Part shown: in pieces, positions 15 through 14,194 of the stretch | Layout of the letters: every line of letters starts with the position of its first letter | Numbering within the stretch: the stretch's first letter is position 1 | From: Spirochaetia bacterium | Lineage (GTDB): Bacteria > Spirochaetota > Spirochaetia > SP-2023 | Reading direction: 5' to 3' | Assembly (NCBI GenBank): GCA_965225855.1 | Contig: CBDDCK010000005.1 | Span: 672,001 to 736,000, forward strand | Length of the DNA: 64,000 bases | The notes under the pieces: model-generated | What the model was told of the DNA's origin: nothing | The model's database searches: none | Seen by the model: the letters and a program-made list of their open reading frames with translations, nothing else | Program-made: the position numbers and the translations under genes

Positions 15-3000
15 GTTGCAGTTGCATACCTTTTTTCATTTCGGTTTAATGCGAGAGCCAGCACGGGCGTTACGCTCAAGGTTGCAGTTGCATACCTTTT
101 TTCATTTCGGTTTAATTACCCCAACAGCGAGTATGAAGTTTCTGCGGTTGCAGTTGCATACCTTTTTTCATTTCGGTTTAATCTAAAGACTCTAGCTCTT
201 TCTCCTTTTGCAGTTGCAGTTGCATACCTTTTTTCATTTCGGTTTAATTACTCTTTAAGTAGATCGTTATCTATACCAGTTGCAGTTGCATACCTTTTTT
301 CATTTCGGTTTAATTGTAACAACCCCCGAATGTAGGCTTGGATAGTTGCAGTTGCATACCTTTTTTCATTTCGGTTTAATAAAAGTATCGCCCAAAACAG
401 GAGCAGTCACGTTGCAGTTGCATACCTTTTTTCATTTCGGTTTAATTGGCCGGTCAAAAGGTCAGTCTCAGCCTCAGTTGCAGTTGCATACCTTTTTTCA
501 TTTCGGTTTAATTAGCAAAGCTAAAGGTAATTGGCAAGGTGGGTTGCAGTTGCATACCTTTTTTCATTTCGGTTTAATAAATCCAGAAACTAGCAGGCCT
601 TTTAGTTGGTTGCAGTTGCATACCTTTTTTCATTTCGGTTTAATTCAAGGGCCATCGTAATGCGACGAATGCGGGTTGCAGTTGCATACCTTTTTTCATT
701 TCGGTTTAATATAATTACAAAAACCCCAATACAGAAGCAGGTTGCAGTTGCATACCTTTTTTCATTTCGGTTTAATTTGAGCACGGAGAAATTAGAAGAT
801 ACAAAGGTTGCAGTTGCATACCTTTTTTCATTTCGGTTTAATTCACTCCTTACCTTAAGCAATCCTTGATTGGTTGCAGTTGCATACCTTTTTTCATTTC
901 GGTTTAATAGCCACGTTATCATGGATCGCATAAAGTTTGTTGCAGTTGCATACCTTTTTTCATTTCGGTTTAATAAGGCTGCATGCGTATAACAAGATTG
1001 CACCGTTGCAGTTGCATACCTTTTTTCATTTCGGTTTAATCTTGTTAAGCTTTTTAAGCCTATTATAAGTGTTGCAGTTGCATACCTTTTTTCATTTCGG
1101 TTTAATTCTGTATTTCAGCAATACTAGGTTTCTATTGTTGCAGTTGCATACCTTTTTTCATTTCGGTTTAATATACCTGTGATGCCGTCTGTACATTAAA
1201 ACGTTGCAGTTGCATACCTTTTTTCATTTCGGTTTAATATATAAAAAAGCATCAATAGATTCACCCTCGTTGCAGTTGCATACCTTTTTTCATTTCGGTT
1301 TAATAAATTCCACAAGGTCAAAAATTATTTGCAAGTTGCAGTTGCATACCTTTTTTCATTTCGGTTTAATAAAAAAGAAAAATCCAGAAAGAACAGGACA
1401 GTTGCAGTTGCATACCTTTTTTCATTTCGGTTTAATTACAATTATTGGCAATAATAGAGATATGCTGTTGCAGTTGCATACCTTTTTTCATTTCGGTTTA
1501 ATCAAGGCTAGCGACTTCTGCAGCCAATTTGTGTTGCAGTTGCATACCTTTTTTCATTTCGGTTTAATTTGTTAGCACTTCTGCCGCTTCTGGTATTGGT
1601 TGCAGTTGCATACCTTTTTTCATTTCGGTTTAATTATTATAGGTAGATTTGCGCAAAGAGTCAAGTTGCAGTTGCATACCTTTTTTCATTTCGGTTTAAT
1701 TGTGAAAAATAGCTCCTACATTTTTTTTCTGTTGCAGTTGCATACCTTTTTTCATTTCGGTTTAATTCATGCATAAGACGAAGACCCCACTCGAAAGTTG
1801 CAGTTGCATACCTTTTTTCATTTCGGTTTAATCAACCTTCTGAGATTGACCGGTCAACAGATGTTGCAGTTGCATACCTTTTTTCATTTCGGTTTAATTA
1901 ATATAGCAATCCATTGCTAATATTTCTAGTTGCAGTTGCATACCTTTTTTCATTTCGGTTTAATTCCACATCGGGAGATTAAATCATGCAGATAGTTGCA
2001 GTTGCATACCTTTTTTCATTTCGGTTTAATAACGGTGCTTGTAACAACCTTCTTGGCGACGTTGCAGTTGCATACCTTTTTTCATTTCGGTTTAATTTGG
2101 CTATATATAAGTAGGTTTTGGGCACTGTTGCAGTTGCATACCTTTTTTCATTTCGGTTTAATAAAAGTATCGCCTAATACAGGAGCAGTCACGTTGCAGT
2201 TGCATACCTTTTTTCATTTCGGTTTAATTTGTTTAGTTTTTCAGTCTTCACTATTATAGTTGCAGTTGCATACCTTTTTTCATTTCGGTTTAATGAAAAG
2301 GCCACCAAAACCTTCACGTGTCAAGTTGCAGTTGCATACCTTTTTTCATTTCGGTTTAATAGAAATATACAGTGGAATCAAAAGAATTAGGTTGCAGTTG
2401 CATACCTTTTTTCATTTCGGTTTAATTTCGGCCTTACGAACCTTGTCAACCTGAGCGTTGCAGTTGCATACCTTTTTTCATTTCGGTTTAATCATATTAA
2501 GGTCGCCGTACTCACCACAACAGTTGCAGTTGCATACCTTTTTTCATTTCGGTTTAATTTTTTTGTATTGGTCGATTATCTTGGTACTGTTGCAGTTGCA
2601 TACCTTTTTTCATTTCGGTTTAATTATCCTGAGATCGTTGACCGTTATCATTGTGTTGCAGTTGCATACCTTTTTTCATTTCGGTTTAATCGTTTAGTGG
2701 CAAGATCAACATCTAAACCAGTTGCAGTTGCATACCTTTTTTCATTTCGGTTTAATACATTCCGCACACGGTCATAGTCAACCTGTGTTGCAGTTGCATA
2801 CCTTTTTTCATTTCGGTTTAATCATAGGCTTGTTTTTGTTCATAGCTTAGTTGTTGCAGTTGCATACCTTTTTTCATTTCGGTTTAATTACCATCGTTGT
2901 CACCTAAAGTAGAAACATGTTGCAGTTGCATACCTTTTTTCATTTCGGTTTAATTCAATTGTGTTTTTTTGCTTGTCAAAGGCTGTTGCAGTTGCATACC

Positions 3001-3944
3001 TTTTTTCATTTCGGTTTAATCAAAGAGTCAAGCGTTTTTTGATGATTTTCGTTGCAGTTGCATACCTTTTTTCATTTCGGTTTAATAGATTTCTGGTATT
3101 CAAAAACATTCTTTCTGTTGCAGTTGCATACCTTTTTTCATTTCGGTTTAATTTAGGATCAGAAGCAATAATGCGCCTAGCAGTTGCAGTTGCATACCTT
3201 TTTTCATTTCGGTTTAATATAGGCTGAAACCGTATAACAAGATTTGCAGTTGCAGTTGCATACCTTTTTTCATTTCGGTTTAATAAAAATCAAAGCTTAT
3301 TCAGCTTCTTTAACGTTGCAGTTGCATACCTTTTTTCATTTCGGTTTAATAGCCACATTGTCGTGGATCGCATATAGTTTGTTGCAGTTGCATACCTTTT
3401 TTCATTTCGGTTTAATAGCGCTAGTGCCGTCACGGCCACCAGTAATGTTGCAGTTGCATACCTTTTTTCATTTCGGTTTAATAATTGCCACAATCCATAA
3501 ACTGGCAAACAAGTTGCAGTTGCATACCTTTTTTCATTTCGGTTTAATATGCTGATGATCTCAATAAGTTTTTGTCCTGTTGCAGTTGCATACCTTTTTT
3601 CATTTCGGTTTAATAATTGCCACAATCCATAAACTGGCAAACAAGTTGCAGTTGCATACCTTTTTTCATTTCGGTTTAATTTTTTGCTATATAAGGTAGG
3701 TTTTGACACTGTTGCAGTTGCATACCTTTTTTCATTTCGGTTTAATGACCACTGCCAACGAATCGGCAGCAATTTGGTTGCAGTTGCATACCTTTTTTCA
3801 TTTCGGTTTAATAATCTAATCTACAACAGTAGAAATTTGAAGGTTGCAGTTGCATACCTTTTTTCATTTCGGTTTAATACCTTCTCACGAGACCTCTTCG
3901 TCTCTCTTGTTGCAGTTGCATACCTTTTTTCATTTCGGTTTAAT
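15..3944 (+). CRISPR. Type II-C CRISPR array: 60 copies of a 36-bp repeat GTTGCAGTTGCATACCTTTTTTCATTTCGGTTTAAT, 59 complete 30-bp spacers; truncated at window start
   Basis: Exact 66-bp period from 15 to 3909. Orientation (+) deduced from the + strand tracrRNA, whose anti-repeat is complementary to the + strand repeat. Confidence 0.99.
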
Positions 3945-4010: not shown

Positions 4011-4240
4011 TCAACACAGTAAAAGGGCTTGTTCTCTGGCACTTTTTTTGCTGTTATCGCGTTTGTGCTGGCTGTAGCTGCTGATGTTCGCATATTGTAT
4101 ATCCGTTATCGTTATTATATCTACCTGTCCCCCCTTCGGGGGGAGAGAGTTTTTGATTCACTCTAATAATCGCTTGCGTTGTTTATTGCCGCCAGCAAAT
4201 TTATAGTATACAGAATATTGGGCCATAGTAAAGTCTTGTT
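4011..4240 (-). pseudogene. cas2: Truncated, diverged cas2 copy (3' two-thirds) with an in-frame TGA
   Basis: Translates EQDFTMAQYSVYYKFAGGNKQRKRLLE*IKNSLPPKGGQVDIITITDIQYANISSYSQHKRDNSKKSAREQALLLC; aligns to intact cas2 about 600 bp away; stop at 4158-4160. Confidence 0.9.
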
Positions 4241-4340
4241 CCGCCTTGCTATAATATATCTCTCCGCCTTGGATCAAGGCCTTGTTCCACCTTGCTATAA
4301 TATATCTTTCCGCCTTGGATCAAGGCCTTGATCCAAGGCG
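4235..4340. repeat. Two tandem 46-bp units followed by a partial third, forming a perfect 30-bp palindrome (4311-4340)
   Basis: Units 4235-4280 and 4281-4326 each contain TGCTATAAT; CGCCTTGGATCAAGGCCTTGATCCAAGGCG is self-complementary. Confidence 0.9.
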
Positions 4341-4512: not shown

Positions 4513-4549
4513 AAATAGCTTGCATACCTTTTCTTCATTTCACTTTAAT
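4513..4549 (+). repeat. Orphan degenerate CRISPR repeat
   Basis: TTGCATACCTTTTCTTCATTTCACTTTAAT matches the 3' ~29 nt of the repeat with a few changes; followed by a copy of the array flank. Confidence 0.85.
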
Positions 4550-4613
4550 TAGTGCCCTAGCTAAGTAATTTTTTCAGATTGCTTAGCTAGGCATGGGTTT
4601 GGGAAAAGGCCAT

Positions 4614-4949
4614 TCAAAACAGTAAAAGCGGTTGTTCTCTGGCACTTTTTTTGCTGTTATCGCGTTTGTGCTGGCTGTAGCTGATGATATTGGCATATTG
4701 TATATCCGTGATTGTAATTATATCTACTTGCCCCTTCTGGGGTAGGGCACTTTTGATTAACTCTAGTAGTCGCTTGCGCTGCTCGCTTCCGCCAGCAAAT
4801 TTATAGTATACAGAGTATTGGGCCATAGTAAAGCCTTGCTCTAATAGAAACTGGCGAAAGCGCGTGGCTTCTTTGCGTTCTTGTTGTTCCACTACTGGTA
4901 GGTCAAACATTAGATATAGCCACATCACTTTGTAAGGGTTAAGGCGCAT
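4614..4949 (-). CDS. cas2: CRISPR-associated endoribonuclease Cas2
   Basis: MWLYLMFDLPV..FRQFLLEQGFTMAQYSVY motif; downstream of cas1. Confidence 0.97.
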   Translation of the reverse strand: MRLNPYKVMWLYLMFDLPVVEQQERKEATRFRQFLLEQGFTMAQYSVYYKFAGGSEQRKRLLELIKSALPQKGQVDIITITDIQYANIISYSQHKRDNSKKSAREQPLLLF

Positions 4950-5905
4950 AGTTCTACTACATCAATAGCGGTTTGCTCATCTAAGGTGATTGGCTCTAGC
5001 TTTTGTTGCTTGCCCTCTAACACCATGCAAAAGTTTTGCACATAGCGCAGCTCTTGGCGCATTAGGTAGCTTTGTTCGTTGCTGTAATCTAGTTCTTGGC
5101 GTAGTAACTGACTAAGCGCTCGCTTACTTTCGCTATTCAGTTCACGATAACCCCAATGGTAGTATAGGTGGGTAACAAAGGCGTCTACCAACGGGCGTAG
5201 GGTTTCCATAAGGTCGCTAGCTAGGCAATAGGGGTTTTGGCTGTTGCAGTGCTGTATGCCAAACGCCCCCAGTAAACCGCAGCAATTGATGGCTCGTATC
5301 ACACAACCCAGCAAAATGGTATAGCCGTAGTTGAGTAAGCCATTGGGCGGCATTGGCCCCAAACGGCGGAAGTCATCGCCAAATAGCATAGGCCAATAGC
5401 GTTGGGCAGCTGTAGCTTCTAGCATCGTGCTGTCCCCGCTTTGTACCTTTTCGGCCATCGCCAGCAGTTCATTGGCTAAGGCTTGTTCTTCATTTGCTTC
5501 TAGGCAGTGGCGATTGTCCCAACCGAAGCTGGCAGCCATTTGCAATAGCCAGGCTTGGTTGCGTATTTTGTTTTGTACCACCCCTTGCCAGAGCCGTTTC
5601 TTTTTGGGCAACTTGGCCTCTACTTGTAGCCGTACCCGTTGTTGCAAACGGCTATGGCCGTCTAATGGCAGCATGGCTACCGAAGGTAAGTAGTCCGCAC
5701 CGCACAATAGCACAGGGATATTGCGCTTAGCCAATTGGTTTAGCAACGGTGTACTGACTGTGGATTGCGGACTATTCAGCAATAGCACGCCAATACGCTC
5801 TAGGTCTACAAGGTGCTTTTGGCCATTGCGCAGTAGTTCCAGATGGCCCCGCTTTTGGTGTAGGTAGCAGCCGCTGCTTTCTACTTCTATTACTTGTTCG
5901 TACAC
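4925..5905 (-). CDS. cas1: Type II CRISPR-associated endonuclease Cas1
   Basis: EATAAQRYW, NGLLNYGYTIL, GIQH..NPYCLASDLME motifs. Confidence 0.97.
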   Translation of the reverse strand: MYEQVIEVESSGCYLHQKRGHLELLRNGQKHLVDLERIGVLLLNSPQSTVSTPLLNQLAKRNIPVLLCGADYLPSVAMLPLDGHSRLQQRVRLQVEAKLPKKKRLWQGVVQNKIRNQAWLLQMAASFGWDNRHCLEANEEQALANELLAMAEKVQSGDSTMLEATAAQRYWPMLFGDDFRRLGPMPPNGLLNYGYTILLGCVIRAINCCGLLGAFGIQHCNSQNPYCLASDLMETLRPLVDAFVTHLYYHWGYRELNSESKRALSQLLRQELDYSNEQSYLMRQELRYVQNFCMVLEGKQQKLEPITLDEQTAIDVVELCALTLTK

Positions 5906-5914
5906 AGAGGCCTA

Positions 5915-8900
5915 CTACCTATGGCGAACCCAGCCGCCGGGGCTAATGTATACCGCTTGGCATTGCATCTCGTCTCCAAAGATTTTGCTGATCACTTTGT
6001 ATTTCTGGGGGCTATTGGCTTCAATTAGGGGCCGTATATCTAATTTATCGTTTGTAGCGGAATATCCTTTCACCAAGTAGTATTGGCCATCGGCCTTACT
6101 GTACAAAGTGTCATTCTTATAAAGCCTAGTAAGGTGTTCGGCAGAATCTGGTGCTGTTTGCTCCTGCTTGCGTTGGGCTTGGTAGTAGCTAGTGAAGGTT
6201 ACTTTGTATTCTGCCTTACTACCGTTTACAGTGCGCCATATATCGCAGTAAGCATAGCCATCGGGCATGTAGTATTGTGGGCTGCTGGTTTTTGGCTGTA
6301 CTAGGGTTTGGTCTTTGGGTATGTAGCGTACCTTCTTGATGCCATGCTTTGCCCCATAGTCTTTGATGAAACTTTCCCAAGAGAGCTTCTTATCACCATC
6401 ACTTTGTTGCGCTTGGTAGGCCTCTTTTAGCCTTGTGCGCAGGCCATCATCAACTGGGCCTTGATAGCCTTGTTCCAGTGGCTCACAGTCTTTCTCTGTT
6501 ATCCCGCTTAGTAGCTTGCTGTTGACAAAGTAGCCATGCCAATAACGCAGGCCTATCTTGGGGTGTTCTAGCGCAAAGGCTTTGTGGCCTTCGTTCCATA
6601 ATTTTCCCAATGGTCCTTTTTGTGTTCTTTGTAGTAGTGCTTGGGTCTCTTGCTCTAGCTGTAGCAACTGGCCCCGTTGGGGTTTTATGGTTGCTGCTAT
6701 CTGGCGTAGTTCGCTTATCGAGCCTTGCAGTTCTTGTTGTTTCTTGCAGTTTGCTTTTGTGTTCTGGGCTTGGGCCGGGTTTGTTTCGGGCCGAGTAGCA
6801 ATATAATCCAGCAGCCAATGGGCTTGCTCTGGCCGTACCAACAATGGTAAGTTTTCACGCAGTGTTTTGCCATCTATAGCGCTAATTGCTTTGTAGATTA
6901 AACCATTCGCCGTTTCTGCAAACATCGCACTGTTATGGCTATGATCCTGTTTGTGGGACACAATGATACTGCTTACCACCGTTTCTATTTGCTGGCGTAA
7001 ACCCTGTCGTTCCCCAGCCATGCGCTGCATGGCATAGCGTTGCCTCCGCTTAGCTGTTTTCAGTTCTTCAGCTTCTTTGCCCAATAACTGGTCTTGACTA
7101 AATGCAAAGTAGCCACTCAAGCGTTTGAGCAAACTGCGGTCAATCATCGCTACCACTATCGCATCTATCGCATGGTGGCGGTGGTCATTGCGGTTTTTCT
7201 TTTTATGTTTGGGGTTCTCGTTGAGCAGACTATTGAGATTCAGGTTGTCCCGCAGCATTTCCGTTATGTGGCCATTGCTAGCCCACACTTGCGGGCAAAT
7301 AGATTGTAGATACTGCATAGCCTTACGGGCAATATAGGCGTTATCGGTAGTTTGCCTAGCCAAGAAGTGGTCATCGCTTTCATACCGTTTCATCGCTTCC
7401 GCTGTAAAGTGTTCTTGCTTGTTCTTAGGTAGGTTTCCGGTAGCTTGTTTGATTCGTTGCCAACGTTCCGCATCGTGGCCAAAAGCCTCGTAAGGGCTAC
7501 GGTCTCCCTTTTGGCGGTTGCAGGCCGTGTGGCTTAGCGTTAGGTTTGCCATACCATTATCTAAGGTACGGCTAAAGGGCAAGATATGCTCTATCTCCAC
7601 TCGGTTGTCGGGGCTAAATAAATCACTCGCAGGGATTTTTACGCCACAGTAAGGGCACTTTGCCGTAGTGTTCTTTAGGGCTAGCTCTTCATATAATTGC
7701 AGCTTGCGGCGGTCGTCCCTGCTGGGGTAGTGAATATTGTAGTTTTCCCGCAATTCTTTGTTCCGCCGCTCGTTTTGCTTTTTGTTCTCATTTTGTAGCT
7801 TGCTGATCTCGGCCTTGGCTTTGCGGCTATTCTTTAGGTCGCGCCCCAATTCAACCACCACCTCATCGGGTAGGCCATAATGGCCTATTATATCATTGAC
7901 TACCTTACGCACTTGGTTTAAGGCCACATGCACGGTTGGGTTGCCAATACGGCCATACTTAGCTTCATCACTGTTTATCTCTAAACCGGGCTTATTCTTT
8001 TGCAGCTTTTTGAGTGGGTAACATGATTCTGGCATTGCAGCACCATAATAGGGTAAAGTCGGCAGCAGCTGGCTCTTCTTCTGTTTATCGACACGCAGTT
8101 TCTGTAAATGGGTTGCACCGCCATCATCGGGGTATTGTTCCAATAAATAGTGTAGTACCTCCCGTTGCAGGCAGGCACTTAGCTCTGTCGTACCTGTCGG
8201 AAGTTCATAGGCAAATAGTGCTTGGCATTGTTGTTCACTTAGCCCCAGTTCTCTAAATGGCTGTAGCAGTTTGTCTTGCTCGTTATCCTTGGCATAGGTA
8301 AACAGCATAACCTTTTCACAAAGGCTATCTTGTTCCTCTAAGTTCAGCTTATGCCAGTGTTCTTTTCCAAAAAACTCGGGCTTTTGCATCTCTACATTGA
8401 CTACAGCACCCTCTAACTCTTCTTTACGGTTCTTTTCTAAGTTAAAGGTAATATTTTCGCTCCAGCCGAACATTTTGCGTATAGCTTTGAAGGTCATGCT
8501 TTTGCAGTTACACAGCTTATTGTAGAGCTGCAAGCGTTCTTGATTGTTTAAACTTATCTGGCTACCATGTTCATCTATCATGCGTAAGTTCAGCACGTTT
8601 TGGGCAATACGCAGCCGTTCACTACTGGGCTGGCTTTTATAGGCTCGGTCTTCATCTTCGTAGTACCAGCATTTGCCCCGTTCTGGTTTCTGTAAAGGCC
8701 GTTGATAAAATAGAATCTGCTCTAGCGTATCCCAATTGATGTTCTCAAAAGCTGGGTACTGGCTTTGCTGCTGCCTAATCGCTCTAAACTCATCGCGATA
8801 CATTTGTCTGTTGGCATAGAAATCGCCTATATCGGCCTGGGTGTTTTGCTCTCCTGCGGCTGTTGTAGCTTTGTCATTGCGGAAGCGTACACTTTGTTTT

Positions 8901-9457
8901 GCCTTTTTGCGTTGGTAGAGCCATGTACCCAAAGTAGCGTCTTGTGCCAAGGTTTGCTCCAACTTACGAATGCGCTGTAAATTGGCGCGCTCTTCCTTCT
9001 CTTTTTCTGTTGCTTTGTCTTCAGTTTTACTTTGTTTCCGATTACTTTGGTAGCCACGCCTCTGGCACAAGTGGAATAAAGCCCGCCCAAGTTCGTAAGG
9101 TTTTAGCTCTTGCTTCACCGCTAAAGAGCGCAATCGGTATGGGTCTTGTTTCATCAAGCTTGTATTTTCTGGGCTGTTGGGTGGTGGCAATAGCCCTTGT
9201 TGTTGTAGTTCTTTGGCAAATTTAGCCACGCGCCGTTTTAACCTACGTAGTCTGCGCCGACTACCTCTAGCCTCACGGCGAGCTACAGCTAACGAAGAAT
9301 CTTTTTCATCTCGACCATCACTAAATATACGCACTCCAGCCGTTTCTAACTGCTTTAGCGTATAAGTCTTTTTGTTTGCTTCTTTAGCATCTAGGCTCCA
9401 AATAGACCAGCCTATAGAATTTGTTCCTAGGTCTAAACCTAAGCGGTAAGGTTTCAT
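5915..9457 (-). CDS. cas9: Type II-C Cas9 (1180 aa), catalytic motifs intact
   Basis: RuvC-I LGLDLGTNSIGW, Arg-rich bridge helix, RuvC-II VELGRD, HNH EIEHILPFS..N..CNRQKG, RuvC-III DHRHHAIDA; no csn2 or cas4 in the operon. Confidence 0.99.
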   Translation of the reverse strand: MKPYRLGLDLGTNSIGWSIWSLDAKEANKKTYTLKQLETAGVRIFSDGRDEKDSSLAVARREARGSRRRLRRLKRRVAKFAKELQQQGLLPPPNSPENTSLMKQDPYRLRSLAVKQELKPYELGRALFHLCQRRGYQSNRKQSKTEDKATEKEKEERANLQRIRKLEQTLAQDATLGTWLYQRKKAKQSVRFRNDKATTAAGEQNTQADIGDFYANRQMYRDEFRAIRQQQSQYPAFENINWDTLEQILFYQRPLQKPERGKCWYYEDEDRAYKSQPSSERLRIAQNVLNLRMIDEHGSQISLNNQERLQLYNKLCNCKSMTFKAIRKMFGWSENITFNLEKNRKEELEGAVVNVEMQKPEFFGKEHWHKLNLEEQDSLCEKVMLFTYAKDNEQDKLLQPFRELGLSEQQCQALFAYELPTGTTELSACLQREVLHYLLEQYPDDGGATHLQKLRVDKQKKSQLLPTLPYYGAAMPESCYPLKKLQKNKPGLEINSDEAKYGRIGNPTVHVALNQVRKVVNDIIGHYGLPDEVVVELGRDLKNSRKAKAEISKLQNENKKQNERRNKELRENYNIHYPSRDDRRKLQLYEELALKNTTAKCPYCGVKIPASDLFSPDNRVEIEHILPFSRTLDNGMANLTLSHTACNRQKGDRSPYEAFGHDAERWQRIKQATGNLPKNKQEHFTAEAMKRYESDDHFLARQTTDNAYIARKAMQYLQSICPQVWASNGHITEMLRDNLNLNSLLNENPKHKKKNRNDHRHHAIDAIVVAMIDRSLLKRLSGYFAFSQDQLLGKEAEELKTAKRRQRYAMQRMAGERQGLRQQIETVVSSIIVSHKQDHSHNSAMFAETANGLIYKAISAIDGKTLRENLPLLVRPEQAHWLLDYIATRPETNPAQAQNTKANCKKQQELQGSISELRQIAATIKPQRGQLLQLEQETQALLQRTQKGPLGKLWNEGHKAFALEHPKIGLRYWHGYFVNSKLLSGITEKDCEPLEQGYQGPVDDGLRTRLKEAYQAQQSDGDKKLSWESFIKDYGAKHGIKKVRYIPKDQTLVQPKTSSPQYYMPDGYAYCDIWRTVNGSKAEYKVTFTSYYQAQRKQEQTAPDSAEHLTRLYKNDTLYSKADGQYYLVKGYSATNDKLDIRPLIEANSPQKYKVISKIFGDEMQCQAVYISPGGWVRHR

Positions 9458-9505
9458 GATAATAGCTCCTTTGGGATTATTTTATAAAAAATGTGCGATA
9501 ATTAC

Positions 9506-9534
9506 TTGTCAAAACATCGTAATTTGTATAGTAT
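9506..9534 (+). promoter_or_regulatory. Putative sigma70 promoter of tracrRNA
   Basis: TTGTCA-17 bp-TAGTAT just upstream of the anti-repeat. Confidence 0.55.
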
Positions 9535-9541
9535 AGCTTCC

Positions 9542-9665
9542 GTTGAACCGAATTGAAAACAGGTATGCTTGGGCTATACGCTTAGCTGCCAACAAGCCTT
9601 GTAAGAGGCGCAAAATTATGGCTTAACTTCAATTAGTTTCCTTTTTGAAGTTAAGCCAGTTTTTT
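9542..9665 (+). ncRNA. tracrRNA
   Basis: Anti-repeat GTTGAACCGAATTGAAAACAGGTATGC plus lower-stem AGCTGCCAAC, nexus AAGCC..GGC, 14-bp terminator stem (9619-9658) and U-tract. Confidence 0.9.
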
Positions 9666-9691
9666 ATTTCTTTTATTGAACATAAAAAATG

Positions 9692-9742
9692 GAGCTTTAA
9701 AACTTGCGCTTATGCTTATTACTTGCGGCGGTTTTAAAGCTC
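9692..9742 (-). terminator. Hairpin terminator after the osmoprotectant ABC operon
   Basis: GAGCTTTAAAAC..GTTTTAAAGCTC inverted repeat. Confidence 0.6.
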
Positions 9743-9755
9743 TTATAAAAATAAT

Positions 9756-10646
9756 TTACTGAATTAAGCCTTTCGCTTTTAGGAACTTGAATGCAACTTC
9801 CTTTGGCTCTAATCTATTTTCTTCTACATCGTAGTTCATGGCCGTCATTTCAGAATCATTGATCCTACCGCTTAATTGAGAGATAATCTCTTCTAGCTCG
9901 GGCAGACGCTCTAAAGTCTTTTGATGTACCACTGGTACAGCATAGTACGGTGGAAAAAAGTTTAAATCATCTTCAAGAATCTTCATGTCAAAACGCTTGA
10001 GTTTTGCGTCTGTAGAATAAGCATCGGTATAGTCTGCTTGCTCTTCGATAATTGCTTGGTATCTTAAACCAATTTCTAACTGTATCATTGGTTGCTCTGG
10101 TTTAAAACCGTAAGCGGCAAACATTGGCTCTGCTCCATCGCTATCACGGGCAATAAATTCACTGTCAAAGCCAGCTATTAAGTCTAAATGATTTTTCAAG
10201 TCTGAAATTTTGGTAATGCTCAATTGCTCGGCACGGGTGCGCAACATGGCAATTGCATAAGTATTGTTGAAGCCAAAGGGCTCAAATACTTTCCCTTGGT
10301 ATTCATTGCTAATTGCTTCTTGCACAATGCGCAATGTTTCATCTTGGCCAGCTTTATCTTGCTTCTTTAGGATTGCTTGATAAATAGTGCCGGTATAATC
10401 TGGATAAATATCGACATTGCCAGATTGGAATGCTTGCCATACTATAGAAGTAGTTCCCATATTGGGTTTTAAATCAACTTCAATATCACTTTTAGCTTGT
10501 ACCAGTTCTGCAAGAATATGGCTTAAAATAATATTTTCTGTGTAATTTTTAGAAGCAATAGTTACTGTTCTACTGTTCTGATTAGAATTACAAGAAGCTA
10601 TTGACAAAATAGCCGTAAATAGGACTAAAATTTTCCATTGAATCAT
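9756..10646 (-). CDS. Glycine betaine/osmoprotectant ABC transporter substrate-binding lipoprotein (OpuCC/OsmF-like)
   Basis: SKNYTE, DIYPDYTGT, GFNNTYA, FFPPY motifs; lipobox IASC; start at MIQWK behind an RBS. Confidence 0.9.
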   Translation of the reverse strand: MIQWKILVLFTAILSIASCNSNQNSRTVTIASKNYTENIILSHILAELVQAKSDIEVDLKPNMGTTSIVWQAFQSGNVDIYPDYTGTIYQAILKKQDKAGQDETLRIVQEAISNEYQGKVFEPFGFNNTYAIAMLRTRAEQLSITKISDLKNHLDLIAGFDSEFIARDSDGAEPMFAAYGFKPEQPMIQLEIGLRYQAIIEEQADYTDAYSTDAKLKRFDMKILEDDLNFFPPYYAVPVVHQKTLERLPELEEIISQLSGRINDSEMTAMNYDVEENRLEPKEVAFKFLKAKGLIQ

Positions 10647-10758
10647 AGTGATTTCCTTTCCTTTTAATAAAAAAATTGTAAACAAAAATTCATAATTCGA
10701 TGATTCATAGCAGTTATATAAAAGGCATTGTTCCTCCAGTAAATTGTATTTTGTATGC

Positions 10759-11382
10759 CTAATAACGGCTTAAGATTTTGCCACAGAAGATAAGTAGTGT
10801 ATCCAGCAAAACAGCTAGTAATGCCGATGGAATGGCTCCTGCTAAAATTAAATTGTTGTCTAGTACAGAGATTCCCCGAAAGATAAAGGTCCCTAGGGCT
10901 CCTGCTCCAATTGAGGCTACTAGCGTGGCGATACCGACACAAGTTACCGTTGCAACTCGAACGCCTGTGATAATCACCGGTAAAGCCAAGGGAATTTGTA
11001 CTTTAAATAAAATTTGCCATTTATTCATGCCCACACCAGTAGCACTTTCTATAATTGCAGGGTCAATTTGTTTTATACCAATGATCGTGTTTTGCACAAT
11101 AACCAGTAGAGAATAAATGACCAATGCGATAATGCTGGGCTTTAGTCCAATGCCTGCAATGGGAATTAAAAAGCCCAGTAGAGCAAGGCTGGGTATGGTT
11201 TGCATAATACCTAAGATATATTGTACAGGTGGTGCTGCTCTGCGAAAATGCACTAATAATAAGCCCAATGGAACACCGATCAACACGGCGATCAATACAG
11301 ATAGCACTGTAATTTGTAAATGTTCTGCTGTCCGCAGCATAACCTCATCAATATTTTTTACAAAGTAGACCCCAAAATTCAT
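10759..11382 (-). CDS. Osmoprotectant ABC transporter permease
   Basis: QTIPSLALLG and EAA-loop (ESATGVGM) motifs. Confidence 0.92.
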   Translation of the reverse strand: MNFGVYFVKNIDEVMLRTAEHLQITVLSVLIAVLIGVPLGLLLVHFRRAAPPVQYILGIMQTIPSLALLGFLIPIAGIGLKPSIIALVIYSLLVIVQNTIIGIKQIDPAIIESATGVGMNKWQILFKVQIPLALPVIITGVRVATVTCVGIATLVASIGAGALGTFIFRGISVLDNNLILAGAIPSALLAVLLDTLLIFCGKILSRY

Positions 11383-12125
11383 TCTTTGATCTCCTCTTTT
11401 AGTATGCTTAAGTGGCGTGCGATAAAACGCTCGACAAACTCATTGGCTGGTTCATGTATAATTTGTTTTTTCGTACCAATTTGAGCAATTTCTCCTCCTT
11501 CAAATAGGCAGATTCTATCACCAATAGTAAAAGCTTCATGTATATCATGAGTAACAAAAATAATGGTTTTTTGGATTAGATGTTTTACAGATGAAAATTC
11601 TTCTTGAATTTCCTCACGAGTAATTGGGTCTAAAGCCCCAAAGGGTTCGTCCATCAATATAATATCTGGGTTGCCTATTAGTGCCCGTCCTACACCAATG
11701 CGCTGGCGTTGCCCTCCGGATAATTGGCGCGGCTTGCGTTTGAGTAAACTTTTATCAATTTGCAAAAGGTTAATAATATTTTCAAGCCATTTTTTAGTCT
11801 CTTCTGGTTGCCAATTTAGCAATTTGGGAACTACGACCAAGTTATCATGAATATTCATGTGCGGAAACAAACCAATATTTTGAAAAACATAGCCGATGTT
11901 TCGGCGTAATTTTATGGGGTTCCAGTCGAGAATTGATCTCCCTTTAATTAGAATATCCCCAGAATCAAAGGGAATTAAGCGATTTATCATTTTTAGAGTA
12001 GTCGTTTTACCACAGCCGCTGCGCCCCAACAGTACTAATGTTTGGCCTTTTTCAACGTGGAATGAAACATCTCTAATAGCATGGCTCTTGCCATAAAATT
12101 TATTTACATCTTTGAGTTCTATCAT
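11379..12125 (-). CDS. Osmoprotectant ABC transporter ATP-binding protein (no CBS domains)
   Basis: GRSGCGKTT, LSGGQ, ILMDEPFGALD. Confidence 0.93.
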   Translation of the reverse strand: MIELKDVNKFYGKSHAIRDVSFHVEKGQTLVLLGRSGCGKTTTLKMINRLIPFDSGDILIKGRSILDWNPIKLRRNIGYVFQNIGLFPHMNIHDNLVVVPKLLNWQPEETKKWLENIINLLQIDKSLLKRKPRQLSGGQRQRIGVGRALIGNPDIILMDEPFGALDPITREEIQEEFSSVKHLIQKTIIFVTHDIHEAFTIGDRICLFEGGEIAQIGTKKQIIHEPANEFVERFIARHLSILKEEIKE

Positions 12126-12349: not shown

Positions 12350-14194
12350 CTATATGTCTGTATCTTGGCTCTTTAAAGCTGCTAAAAAGGCACTTTGCGG
12401 CAACTCGACAGAGCCGATCATTTTCATGCGCTTTTTGCCTTCTTTTTGCTTTTCTAACAATTTCTTTTTACGTGTGATGTCCCCACCATAGCATTTGGCT
12501 GTAACATCTTTGCGCAATGCATTGATTGTTTCACGAGCGATAATGGTAGCGCCAATTGCGGCTTGGATCGGGATTTTAAACTGTTGGCGTGGTATTTCTT
12601 TACTCAATTTTTCACAAATACTTCGACCCCGCCTTTGAGCATTGGTTTTGTGTGTCAACAAGGTTAAAGCATCGACAATGTCTCCATTGATCAAAATATC
12701 CACTTTATTGAGTTCTGTTACTTGGTAGTTAAGCAGTTCGTAGTCAAAAGAAGCATAACCTCGGCTCACGGATTTTAATTTATCGTAAAAATCAAATAGT
12801 ATTTCACCAAGAGGCATTTCATAGATTAGCTCTACACGTTTTATATCCAGATAGTTCATATTTTTTTGTAGGCCACGCTTCTGGCTACAAAGTGTCATCA
12901 AACCACCCAAATAATCTTCCGGCGTGATAATACTAGCTTGAATATAGGGCTCTTCTACCATTTTAAATGTGTTGGGTTTGGGGTAGAGTGCAGGGTTATC
13001 CAAATACCATTGGCTATCGTCATTGTTAGTAATTCGGTAGCGTACGGAAGGGGCCGTTAGTAAAATGTTTAGCCCAAATTCAGTTTCCAAGCGTTCTTGG
13101 ATTACTTCCAAATGCAATAAGCCTAAAAAACCACAGCGAAAGCCAAATCCTAAGACTGCCGAGGCATCTTTTTCATAAGTCAATGAAGCATCGTTCAAAG
13201 CCAGCTTTTCCATGGCTTTAATTAAGTCGTCATAGAGATTGCTATCTACCGGATAGATGGAAGAAAATACCACAGGCTTGACTGGTTTAAAACCTGCAAG
13301 CGGTTCATCTGCTGGGTTGGCTGCCAGTGTAATGGTATCTCCTACGGTAACTTCGTTGATATTCTTTACATTGCCTATTAGGAAACCTGCTTCACCAGCG
13401 CTTAAACTAATGCTAGAAACAAGCTTGATTTGAAAATAGCCTAAATCTTCCACATCATACTCTGCTTCTTTACCTTTTTGGCCGTGCATCAAACGGAAGC
13501 GTTGGCCTTTGCGCAGTTCTCCTTGGAAAACTCGCAAATGCAACACTACACCTCTATATGGGTCGTAATGGCTATCGAAAATTAAAGCTTTTAAAGCAGC
13601 TTGGCGGTTTCCTTGTAGCGGGGCTGGGCAATGCAGAATAATTCCTTCCAGTAAATCGACAACGCCTAGACCCGTCTTAGCCGACACGGAAAATATTAAT
13701 TCGGTGTTTAATCCTAAATCTTGTTCAATTTGTGTGGTAATTGCTGGTACATCGGCACTGGGTAAATCTACTTTATTTAGTACTGGTATAATCTCTAAAT
13801 TTTGCTCTAAAGCAATGTAAAAGTTTGCCAAAGTCTGGGCTTCAATCCCTTGGGTTGCATCTACCAATAGCAATGCCCCTTCACATGAAGCAATGGCCCG
13901 CGACACTTCGTAAGAAAAATCGACATGCCCCGGTGTGTCAATAAAATTGAGGCAGTACTCTAACCCATCACCTTTTGTTTGGTACAACATGGTAACCGCT
14001 TGGGATTTAATCGTAATGCCGCGCTCGCGCTCAATATCCATGGAATCAAGCAACTGGTTTTGAAATTCTCGGTCGGAAACTAACTTGGTTTCCTGAATAA
14101 AGCGATCTGCTAAGGTTGATTTACCATGGTCAATATGTGCAATAATACAAAAGTTTCGGATTCTTTCAGAAGGAAAGGGGAATTTAGCTGCCAT
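12350..14194 (-). CDS. lepA: Translation elongation factor 4 (LepA)
   Basis: AHIDHGKSTLADR, GFRCGFLGLLH, KCYGGDITRKKKLLEKQKEGKKRMK. Confidence 0.98.
   Translation of the reverse strand: MAAKFPFPSERIRNFCIIAHIDHGKSTLADRFIQETKLVSDREFQNQLLDSMDIERERGITIKSQAVTMLYQTKGDGLEYCLNFIDTPGHVDFSYEVSRAIASCEGALLLVDATQGIEAQTLANFYIALEQNLEIIPVLNKVDLPSADVPAITTQIEQDLGLNTELIFSVSAKTGLGVVDLLEGIILHCPAPLQGNRQAALKALIFDSHYDPYRGVVLHLRVFQGELRKGQRFRLMHGQKGKEAEYDVEDLGYFQIKLVSSISLSAGEAGFLIGNVKNINEVTVGDTITLAANPADEPLAGFKPVKPVVFSSIYPVDSNLYDDLIKAMEKLALNDASLTYEKDASAVLGFGFRCGFLGLLHLEVIQERLETEFGLNILLTAPSVRYRITNNDDSQWYLDNPALYPKPNTFKMVEEPYIQASIITPEDYLGGLMTLCSQKRGLQKNMNYLDIKRVELIYEMPLGEILFDFYDKLKSVSRGYASFDYELLNYQVTELNKVDILINGDIVDALTLLTHKTNAQRRGRSICEKLSKEIPRQQFKIPIQAAIGATIIARETINALRKDVTAKCYGGDITRKKKLLEKQKEGKKRMKMIGSVELPQSAFLAALKSQDTDI

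Follow-up and report, generated by a model that had tools for sequence, protein, structure and literature searches.

Spacers of a type II-C CRISPR array in a spirochaete likely derive in part from gokushovirus-like Microviridae

A 64,000-nucleotide (nt) stretch of a Spirochaetia bacterium genome (assembly GCA_965225855.1, contig CBDDCK010000005.1, positions 672,001 to 736,000 of the forward strand, here called the window; C5:672001-736000 of genome G000) opens with the cas-proximal part of a type II-C CRISPR array. A share of the spacers in this array very probably derives from gokushovirus-like Microviridae that have repeatedly infected the lineage. An earlier examination of the letters alone (the sequence-only reading) had proposed that the array records attack by these single-stranded DNA (ssDNA) phages, on the basis of five motifs seen in the reverse complements of spacers. 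On recomputation its count of 59 spacers and its translations at 51-80, 381-410, 2163-2192, 1767-1796, 2493-2522, 909-938 and 3351-3380 proved exact, and each of the five motifs was again placed on the protein, and at the site in that protein, that had been named, whether major capsid protein, replication initiator (Rep) or VP5.

The microviral origin of the spacers was assessed with a peptide scan covering both CRISPR arrays of this genome, that of Cas9 and that of a second system with Cas12a. The 457 unique spacers were translated in every frame free of stops, and the peptides were slid across the coding-strand open reading frames (ORFs) of 92 microvirus loci, a library of 228,773 amino acids (aa), with reversed and shuffled peptides serving as decoys. 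The loci comprised four GenBank records, contigs from IMG/VR and JGI, two spirochaete prophages and one circular contig, and their ORFs were labelled through blastp to annotated proteins. At a score of at least 38, 23 spacers found a match, as against 5 reversed and 1 shuffled. The counts were 12, 0 and 1 at a score of at least 42, and 8, 0 and 0 at a score of at least 46. The spacers thus score better than their shuffled counterparts, which is the comparison on which the sequence-only reading had staked its motifs.

For about 20 unique spacers from the two arrays, the best match is a capsid ORF. When eight capsid proteins are aligned, the spacer peptides sit on successive conserved blocks, in order and in frame: RSVFDLSHS, LWDQWEDFI, ITGGRDGTSA, AYNLIYNEY, KEFYRDQNLF, QTRCWGKDYF, LERNARAGSR, AGSRYTEF, TPQGTMAGHG, AGHGLSVGS, GYQGRWDEYR, TTYDYWHLG and VTAPVLGDTF. 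At the nucleotide level, ungapped or BLAST matches to capsid genes reached 27/30, 26/27, 26/29 (twice), 23/24 and 22/23; those of 26/27, 23/24 and 22/23 and one of 26/29 came from 71 further IMG/VR loci, and all of these are antisense to the capsid gene. A blastn search of the window array against INPHARED (50,697 phage records) returned 23 matches (E 0.03-4), seven of which were to Microviridae and six of those seven in annotated major capsid genes. This search, which the sequence-only reading had recommended, gave weak matches only, the best being 27/30.

Other microviral genes are represented as well. In what follows, A9_ and A12_ denote spacers of the full Cas9 array and of the Cas12a array, respectively, and plain numbers from 1 to 59 denote the spacers of the window in window order. 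The Rep-matching spacer peptides are CCGEYGDLNM, AAGEYGDLN, FEWGLRLMH, RSTEWGLRL and KEWMHRIER; A9_018 and spacer 38 score 38, and spacer 27, A9_021 and A9_028 score 35-37. Matches to the pilot (VP2-type) protein were obtained with A9_128, spacer 47 and A12_264, and matches to VP5 with spacers 14 and 51 (score 36). Taken one at a time, the Rep, pilot and VP5 matches are mostly near the noise threshold. The microvirus-matching spacers are spread over the whole Cas9 array, the outermost being the 7th and the 200th of its 201 spacers. In addition, spacer 1 of the window and A12_176 of the Cas12a array overlap by 13 nt with one mismatch and on opposite strands, and can be read jointly as LERNARAGSRYTEF.

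Within the window, at least 9 of the 59 spacers are microviral (Table 1): spacers 1, 6, 33 and 52 match the capsid protein, 27 and 38 Rep, 14 and 51 VP5, and 47, a borderline case, the pilot protein. Spacer 1, whose motif is strong on its own, matches the capsid gene of bajarodmic virus 567 at 27/30 nt and that of IMG/VR locus L212 at 26/29. Spacer 6 matches the capsid gene of MW202567 at 24/25 nt, and six of its eight best peptide matches fall at one capsid site, at about residues 460-478. For spacer 52, the nucleotide matches are 19/20 and 23/30 to the microvirus loci L241 and L167, respectively. Spacer 38, which is borderline, matches ACGEYGDEGL (score 38) of a protein annotated as Rep in bajarodmic virus 187, and the peptide AAGEYGDLN belongs to its sister A9_018. 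The best match of spacer 27 is REWSIRIMH at Rep residue 43 (score 35), and A9_021 and A9_028 match residue 38 of two other Rep proteins. The best match of spacer 14 is KLYTVYDSVA, at residue 8 of an 86-aa ORF labelled VP5, with a score of 36 that lies below the level at which decoys vanish. The members of the spacer pairs 6/33 and 14/51 are near-identical and differ at synonymous positions.

The CRISPR locus itself is apparently a complete type II-C CRISPR-Cas9 system, with a Cas9 that carries RuvC and HNH domains and is closest to II-C Cas9 proteins. The nearest solved Cas9 structures are the chains 8ja0, 6kc8 and 6jdq of about 1082 aa (E 3e-54, with the best stretch at cas9 residues of about 502-790), which we take to be chains of Neisseria meningitidis Cas9. 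Among ORFs of at least 80 aa, the locus holds cas9, cas1 and cas2 and neither csn2 nor cas4; glycine-betaine ATP-binding cassette (ABC) transporter genes lie beyond cas9, and the array lies on the opposite side of the cas genes. It is this restricted gene set, followed directly by the transporter genes, that places the locus in type II-C. Upstream of cas9, a promoter-like TTGTCA-17-TAGTAT on the plus strand (9506-9534) precedes a predicted trans-activating CRISPR RNA (tracrRNA). Its anti-repeat (9543-9568) is complementary to the CRISPR repeat at 23 of 26 positions, with a duplex energy of -35.7 kcal/mol, and is followed on its 3' side by a GC-rich hairpin and a T-run that finishes near 9672. 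Rfam gave no match above its gathering score between 3900 and 10000. As the predicted tracrRNA pairs with plus-strand transcripts of the repeat, the guides would carry plus-strand spacer sequence followed by repeat, and the CRISPR RNA (crRNA) strand is predicted to be the plus strand, opposite to the cas genes. In these respects the locus is similar to Neisseria-type (II-C) loci, which also have cas9-cas1-cas2 without a fourth cas gene, 36-nt repeats with 30-nt spacers, a tracrRNA adjoining cas9, and a crRNA strand opposite to the cas genes. It differs from them in that its Cas9 is about 100 aa longer and its array is very long.

In the full array (C5:662644-675944), a repeat present in 202 identical copies separates 201 spacers, and 171 of these are unique; the window starts inside a spacer and contains the 59 cas-proximal ones. 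Across both arrays of the genome, 52 spacer sequences are present more than once, in up to five copies, and duplicates form tandem blocks, including a two-spacer unit that is repeated four to five times (e.g., in the C5:664726-665350 region). Such blocks may stem from genuine recombination between repeats, or the assembly of so long and perfect an array may have produced them. After the last true repeat, the segment 3939-4241 is an 83-90% identical duplicate of 4545-4841, which takes in the 3' end of cas2, and a 46-nt tandem pair occupies 4230-4321. The junction between the array and the cas genes is thus duplicated or rearranged.

Where spacers overlap, the second spacer supplies the flank of the first, and homologous sites in relatives provide further flanks from which a protospacer-adjacent motif (PAM) can be deduced. 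The overlap-derived flanks ACGATC, AAGATC and AAGGTC and the homologous sites AAAATC and GAAATC suggest an NNRRTC-like PAM for this Cas9. To our knowledge, such a PAM is not known from any characterised Cas9.

The Cas9 spacers that match labelled microvirus proteins show a pronounced strand bias. At a score of at least 38, antisense spacers outnumber sense spacers by 13 to 1 (binomial p 0.0018), and at a score of at least 35 by 18 to 2. The corresponding counts for the Cas12a array are 5 vs 2 and 6 vs 5, and the scan treats both strands alike. The frequency of the PAM was rejected as the cause of the bias, as the microvirus coding strand has a GAT:ATC ratio of 1.08 and a GAYY:RRTC ratio of 1.10. 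Because the Cas9 spacers are antisense to genes and the crRNA strand is predicted to be the plus strand, the guides would be complementary to the coding strand. In microviruses the coding strand is also the packaged strand. All microvirus genes point one way, according to passages of PMC9239249, and some Cas9 proteins, including those of type II-C, cut ssDNA and RNA, as stated in passages of PMC5796797 that cite Ma et al. (2015) and Zhang et al. (2015). We prefer to read the bias as possible selection for guides able to act, in addition, on the mRNA or on the single strand, whether incoming or of the progeny; a bias in spacer acquisition is the alternative. Taken together, the events may be pictured as follows. 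Gokushovirus-like Microviridae would have repeatedly injected their DNA into this lineage, and a share of the spacers would have been captured from them. The crRNAs, each with plus-strand spacer followed by repeat, would pair with the predicted tracrRNA, and Cas9 with these two RNAs would cut the double-stranded replicative form beside an NNRRTC-like PAM. Guides complementary to the packaged coding strand might also engage phage ssDNA or mRNA, as the 13 antisense spacers among 14 would suggest. The pairs 6/33 and 14/51 would represent repeated sampling of diverged phage variants.

Several observations weigh against the microviral account or limit its reach. When host ORFs (181,170 aa) were scanned as a control, 4 spacers scored at least 42, 1 at least 46 and 0 at least 48. 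On this control, the excess is 12 vs 4 at a score of at least 42 and is clean only from 46 upwards (8 vs 1), although the four control matches may stem from exact self-derived spacers in both arrays. Three of the five motifs of the sequence-only reading, namely VTAPVLGDTF, FEWGLRLMH (score 35) and KLYAIHDNVA (36), fall on the protein and site that had been named but are individually below the score at which decoys vanish. Of the window spacers, 47 of 59 have no assigned source, the remainder being the nine microviral ones, spacer 58, which is a special case discussed below, and spacers 5 and 20, which are copies of host sequence. The Cas9 spacers overall show no A/T skew (79 T-rich vs 79 A-rich), while A is in excess on the coding strands of microviruses (0.338 A, 0.256 T). 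Most Cas9 spacers therefore need not derive from microvirus coding strands, and many probably come from elsewhere than microviruses; A/T skew as a global sign of antisense microvirus origin was accordingly rejected. With regard to the PAM, the flanks ATCGTG (A9_007/133) and CAGTTT (A9_170) do not fit NNRRTC. As to the strand bias, the 14 spacers on which it is counted include variants of a single site, so that the number of independent sites is about 11-12. Finally, no protospacer above 27/30 turned up in INPHARED, in IMG/VR (covered by five scans with degenerate patterns and two with a capsid protein or capsid alignment, which led to relatives) or in JGI metagenome contigs, and none of the loci had more than one near-exact protospacer.

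As no exact protospacer was found, the phage is deduced from conserved gene segments, and the collections searched may lack the actual phage. Degenerate patterns back-translated from the spacer peptides led to few loci. In IMG/VR, LERNARAGS gave two loci, CGEYGDLNM one locus that has 54% GC and is not close, and VTAPVLGDTF and KLYAIHDNVA none; in JGI metagenome contigs, LERNARAGS gave five loci. The loci found with LERNARAGS and CGEYGDLNM had no nucleotide matches to other spacers.

The host had been called a spirochaete from gene context, and LepA, encoded in the window (12350-14194) on the same 2.03-Mb contig, agrees with this assignment. It is 62-68% identical to records from Treponema, Spirochaetaceae, Spirochaetales and Spirochaetia, which make up its best 31 matches, and at most 61% identical to those of other phyla; there is no close relative among the matches listed. 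This single marker supports placement of the host in Spirochaetota. A Phage_F search of 401 genomes sampled across the phylum found a capsid gene in three of them (G095, G181 and G249); the tally of this sample by family, which excluded the window's own genome, showed no other member of that genome's family among the 30 families listed (31 more were pooled). G095 and G181 belong to one genus and are small (1.4-1.5 Mb), low-GC spirochaete genomes. In G095, the microviral block is flanked by oligopeptide ABC-transporter genes and sugar-nucleotide genes, and in G181 it adjoins amino-acid transporter, riboflavin and acetyl-CoA carboxylase genes; because both are embedded among chromosomal genes, they are integrated prophages. 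The third, in G249, is a contig of 5,744 nt whose terminal repeat of 55 nt marks it as a circular genome, and it could be a guest introduced by binning. Two Cas12a spacers match the G095 prophage capsid gene, A12_029 at 26/29 and A12_027 at 24/29. When the G095 prophage capsid protein was used as a single query against IMG/VR, nothing matched, and when it was used as an alignment, relatives were found, the best of which are only 32-46% identical to the capsid proteins of the G095 and G181 prophages. The window occurs in three sequencing runs of one sample, none of those listed being of RNA; the runs resemble metagenomes, with millions of contigs. When four runs were compared with the G095 prophage at a likeness of 80%, the yield was stray pieces of 18-38 nt, which speak neither for nor against its presence. 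In the genome to which the window belongs, no Phage_F gene is present, and a resident microvirus prophage in it was rejected for this reason.

Besides spacers 5 and 20, the exact self-matching spacers are A9_003, A9_023, A9_126 and A9_129 in the Cas9 array and A12_021, A12_275 and A12_276 in the Cas12a array, and their targets are housekeeping genes and a dispersed repeat. The Cas9 PAM proposed above is absent at all six exact Cas9 self-targets, those of spacers 5 and 20 included, and the T-rich PAM of Cas12a is absent at the flanks of the A12_021, A12_275 and A12_276 targets. As their targets lack a PAM, both self-spacers of the window are likely harmless, and the missing motif would account for the tolerance of all six Cas9 self-spacers. 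The dispersed repeat, matched by A9_129 and A12_276, has dozens to more than 100 copies in the genome, often spaced about 360-600 nt apart, and occurs on contigs C1-C5 (e.g., C5:173533, 1297433 and 1707121).

The self-matching spacers and the prophages bear on a different account of the microviral spacers, in which their source was microvirus-like prophages or defective integrated elements, reached by uptake of DNA or its exchange among related spirochaetes, and not productive phage attack on this organism. Integrated microvirus prophages do occur in two spirochaete genomes, and an array with exact copies of host genes clearly samples non-viral DNA; the sequence-only reading had itself held that protospacers on the host chromosome would speak against it, a point that spacers 5 and 20 partly bear out. 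Such uptake fits poorly with a genome that has no Phage_F gene of its own, and the spacers come from at least four microvirus genes and include diverged variants of single sites, as repeated encounters with a phage population predict. We consider this account quite improbable.

It is also conceivable that the CRISPR locus was acquired horizontally with its spacers in place, so that the microvirus encounters happened in another host. CRISPR loci do move among lineages, and the duplication of about 300 nt and the stranded degenerate repeat on the cas2-proximal flank mark a rearranged locus. However, microvirus spacers are present in two systems that are unrelated and lie about 400 kb from each other on one 2.03-Mb contig, and two of these spacers overlap on one capsid site. 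Moreover, all 202 repeats are identical, and the exact copies of the host's own genes indicate that the arrays gained spacers while in this genome, which makes a transfer of this kind very improbable. An origin of the resemblances in chance similarity between short peptides is scarcely credible, for, short as the ten-residue peptides are and with three of the five motifs below the score at which decoys vanish, neither decoys nor shuffles reproduce the signal, conserved motifs of one protein are matched in the right order and frame, and both the nucleotide matches and the share of microviruses among the weak database matches point the same way. Repeated infection by gokushovirus-like Microviridae thus remains our preferred explanation for this share of the spacers.

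The second system of this genome is, as judged from its domains, of type V-A (Cas12a) with an array of matching repeats. This array comprises 323 repeats and 322 spacers and lies 67 nt upstream of cas12a in the same orientation. Like the Cas9 array, it matches the microvirus capsid gene, including the one site shared by spacer 1 and A12_176. Therefore, the proposal of the sequence-only reading that microviruses are countered by Cas9 is upheld as far as the Cas9 spacers are microviral, but Cas9 would not act alone. A Cas_Cas1 search of the genome, which is 94% complete, gave a single match, that of the type II locus, and no cas1 for type V-A; spacers may be added to the Cas12a array in trans, or the system may have lost its own adaptation genes.

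Spacer 58 of the window contains the 3' part of a Cas12a repeat. Spacers 66 and 67 of the full Cas9 array (C5:666965-667060) are identical to each other and contain the same 19-nt repeat part with its tail, in the orientation opposite to that of spacer 58. These three spacers were not copied from the host Cas12a array, because their 5' sides differ from the host repeat. The same 19-22 nt occur in sense orientation, outside annotated genes, in the Capybara microviruses Cap1_SP_161 (22/22) and Cap1_SP_223 (20/21), and also in a cattle Microviridae record (19/20) and in three Leptospira LE1-type phage records (19/19). In Cap1_SP_161 (locus L004, coding-strand position 2207), the element has TTGACA and TATCTT separated by 17 nt, then, after 6 nt, the repeat part with a tail of 19 nt, and lastly a terminator hairpin and T-run; by analogy, it resembles a gene whose product would be an RNA anti-CRISPR or a mimic of crRNA. 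The same combination of promoter-like pair, single Cas12a-repeat 3' part, short tail resembling a spacer, and hairpin and T-run is described for the RNA anti-CRISPRs and crRNA-like RNAs against type V-A (Racr, PMC10651486; Cracr, bioRxiv 10.1101/2024.10.29.618823). The main texts of both papers contain no mention of Microviridae, and of the 219 candidates in the Cracr survey, Caudoviricetes account for 202, plasmids for 16 and Megaviricetes for 1 (bioRxiv 10.1101/2024.10.29.618823). A by-eye comparison of the spacer-like tail of the mimic, 6-8 nt of which are known from the spacers, with the region near the start of cas12a showed no match. A wider scheme can be drawn in which spirochaetes would host a divergent gokushovirus-like branch, Cas9 would retain nearly exclusively guides complementary to the packaged strand because it also attacks the ssDNA or mRNA of these phages, and microviruses would counter the Cas12a system with a crRNA mimic that is itself targeted by Cas9. 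This scheme as a whole is tentative and, in our judgement, rather unlikely.

Table 1. Features of the CRISPR loci of this genome and of related prophages (window positions unless a contig or locus is given).
Feature	Position	Strand	Description
CRISPR array, cas-proximal part	15..3944	+	60 identical 36-nt repeats (first at 15, last 3909-3944); 59 spacers, all 30 nt
Spacer 1	51..80	+	Reverse complement LERNARAGSR, major capsid motif; peptide score 48
Spacer 5	315..344	+	30/30 copy of host CCA-adding/poly(A) polymerase-family gene (C5:265252-265281)
Spacer 6	381..410	+	VTAPVLGDTF, C-terminal capsid site; variant twin is spacer 33 (2163-2192)
Spacer 14	909..938	+	KLYAIHDNVA, like VP5/ORF5-type N-terminus; variant twin is spacer 51 (3351-3380)
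Spacer 20	1305..1334	+	30/30 copy of host chorismate-binding enzyme gene (C5:1025630-1025659)
Spacer 27	1767..1796	+	FEWGLRLMH (frame 1), replication initiator site
Spacer 38	2493..2522	+	CCGEYGDLNM, replication initiator site
Spacer 47	3087..3116	+	RKNVFEYQKS, pilot/minor capsid (VP2-type), borderline; matches QKKVFEYQKE, score 38
Spacer 52	3417..3446	+	ITGGRDGTSA, capsid motif; matches ITGGEDGTAA at capsid residue 94, score 43
Spacer 58	3813..3842	+	Reverse complement of Cas12a-repeat 3' part (19 nt) plus fixed tail (5-6 nt)
Degenerate repeat copy	4520..4549	+	Adjoins the cas2 end
cas2	4614..4949	-	Pfam CRISPR_Cas2, E 5.8e-13
cas1	4925..5905	-	Pfam Cas_Cas1, E 1.3e-26; sole cas1 detected in the genome
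cas9	5915..9457	-	1180 aa; Pfam RuvC_III, HNH_4, Cas9_a
tracrRNA, predicted including its ends	9541..9672	+	Promoter-like site, anti-repeat, hairpin and T-run
cas12a and its array	C5:1069567-1094684		1568-aa ORF; Pfam RuvC_1, REC1, cas_Cpf1_2nd, NUC
G095 prophage, gokushovirus-like	L174 (G095:C4:34000-52000), ~6990-11700		ORF5/VP5, capsid, two unknown ORFs, Rep; 59.5-kb contig
G181 prophage, gokushovirus-like	L175 (G181:C14:23000-41000), ~7000-12000		Capsid, Rep; 115-kb contig

Encounters with Gokushovirinae and other Microviridae have been reported from the I-C, I-F and II-B arrays of Legionella pneumophila, in the sections drawn on here of a preprint (bioRxiv 10.1101/2021.03.08.434514). As in the present case, several CRISPR types in one host group sample the same ssDNA phage family there, and the target was inferred without an isolated phage. 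The two cases differ in host phylum, which here is Spirochaetota, and the passages of that preprint on strand, orientation and antisense report no strand bias. The logic is also that of Kirchberger, Martinez and Ochman (2022, PMC9239249), who, in the parts of their paper considered here, assigned hosts from CRISPR spacers and prophages and gave CRISPR-based host calls to about 20% of a large microvirus set. The same parts dismiss associations with Spirochaetes, which "upon close inspection" were single contigs in fragmented metagenome-assembled genomes. In contrast to those cases, the array described here lies on a 2-Mb contig with a spirochaetal LepA, and the prophages lie inside contigs of 59.5 kb and 115 kb. 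A 2024 study of the lemur virome names Treponema among the predicted hosts of some microviruses, in the part that concerns host prediction (PMC11281440). The statement of the sequence-only reading that spirochaetes are not an established microvirus host group therefore agrees with the passages of PMC9239249 that set the link aside, but has to be qualified in view of the computational prediction of Treponema in that part of PMC11281440. CRISPR arrays that remember microviruses are already well known; what is new is the host phylum.

Microviridae are among the commonest phages of the gut and of environmental samples, and most of them are without a known host. Three lines of observation, i.e., the array on a 2-Mb contig, the convergence of two CRISPR systems on one capsid site, and the prophages in two genomes, make Spirochaetota a likely new host phylum for this family. 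They also provide guidance for the isolation of phages of spirochaetes related to Treponema, by indicating what to look for. Furthermore, the 13:1 strand bias raises the question as to whether the ability of type II-C Cas9 to cleave ssDNA or RNA is used against an ssDNA phage, and the putative mimic raises the question as to whether microviruses with genomes of 4-5 kb can afford a gene for an RNA anti-CRISPR.

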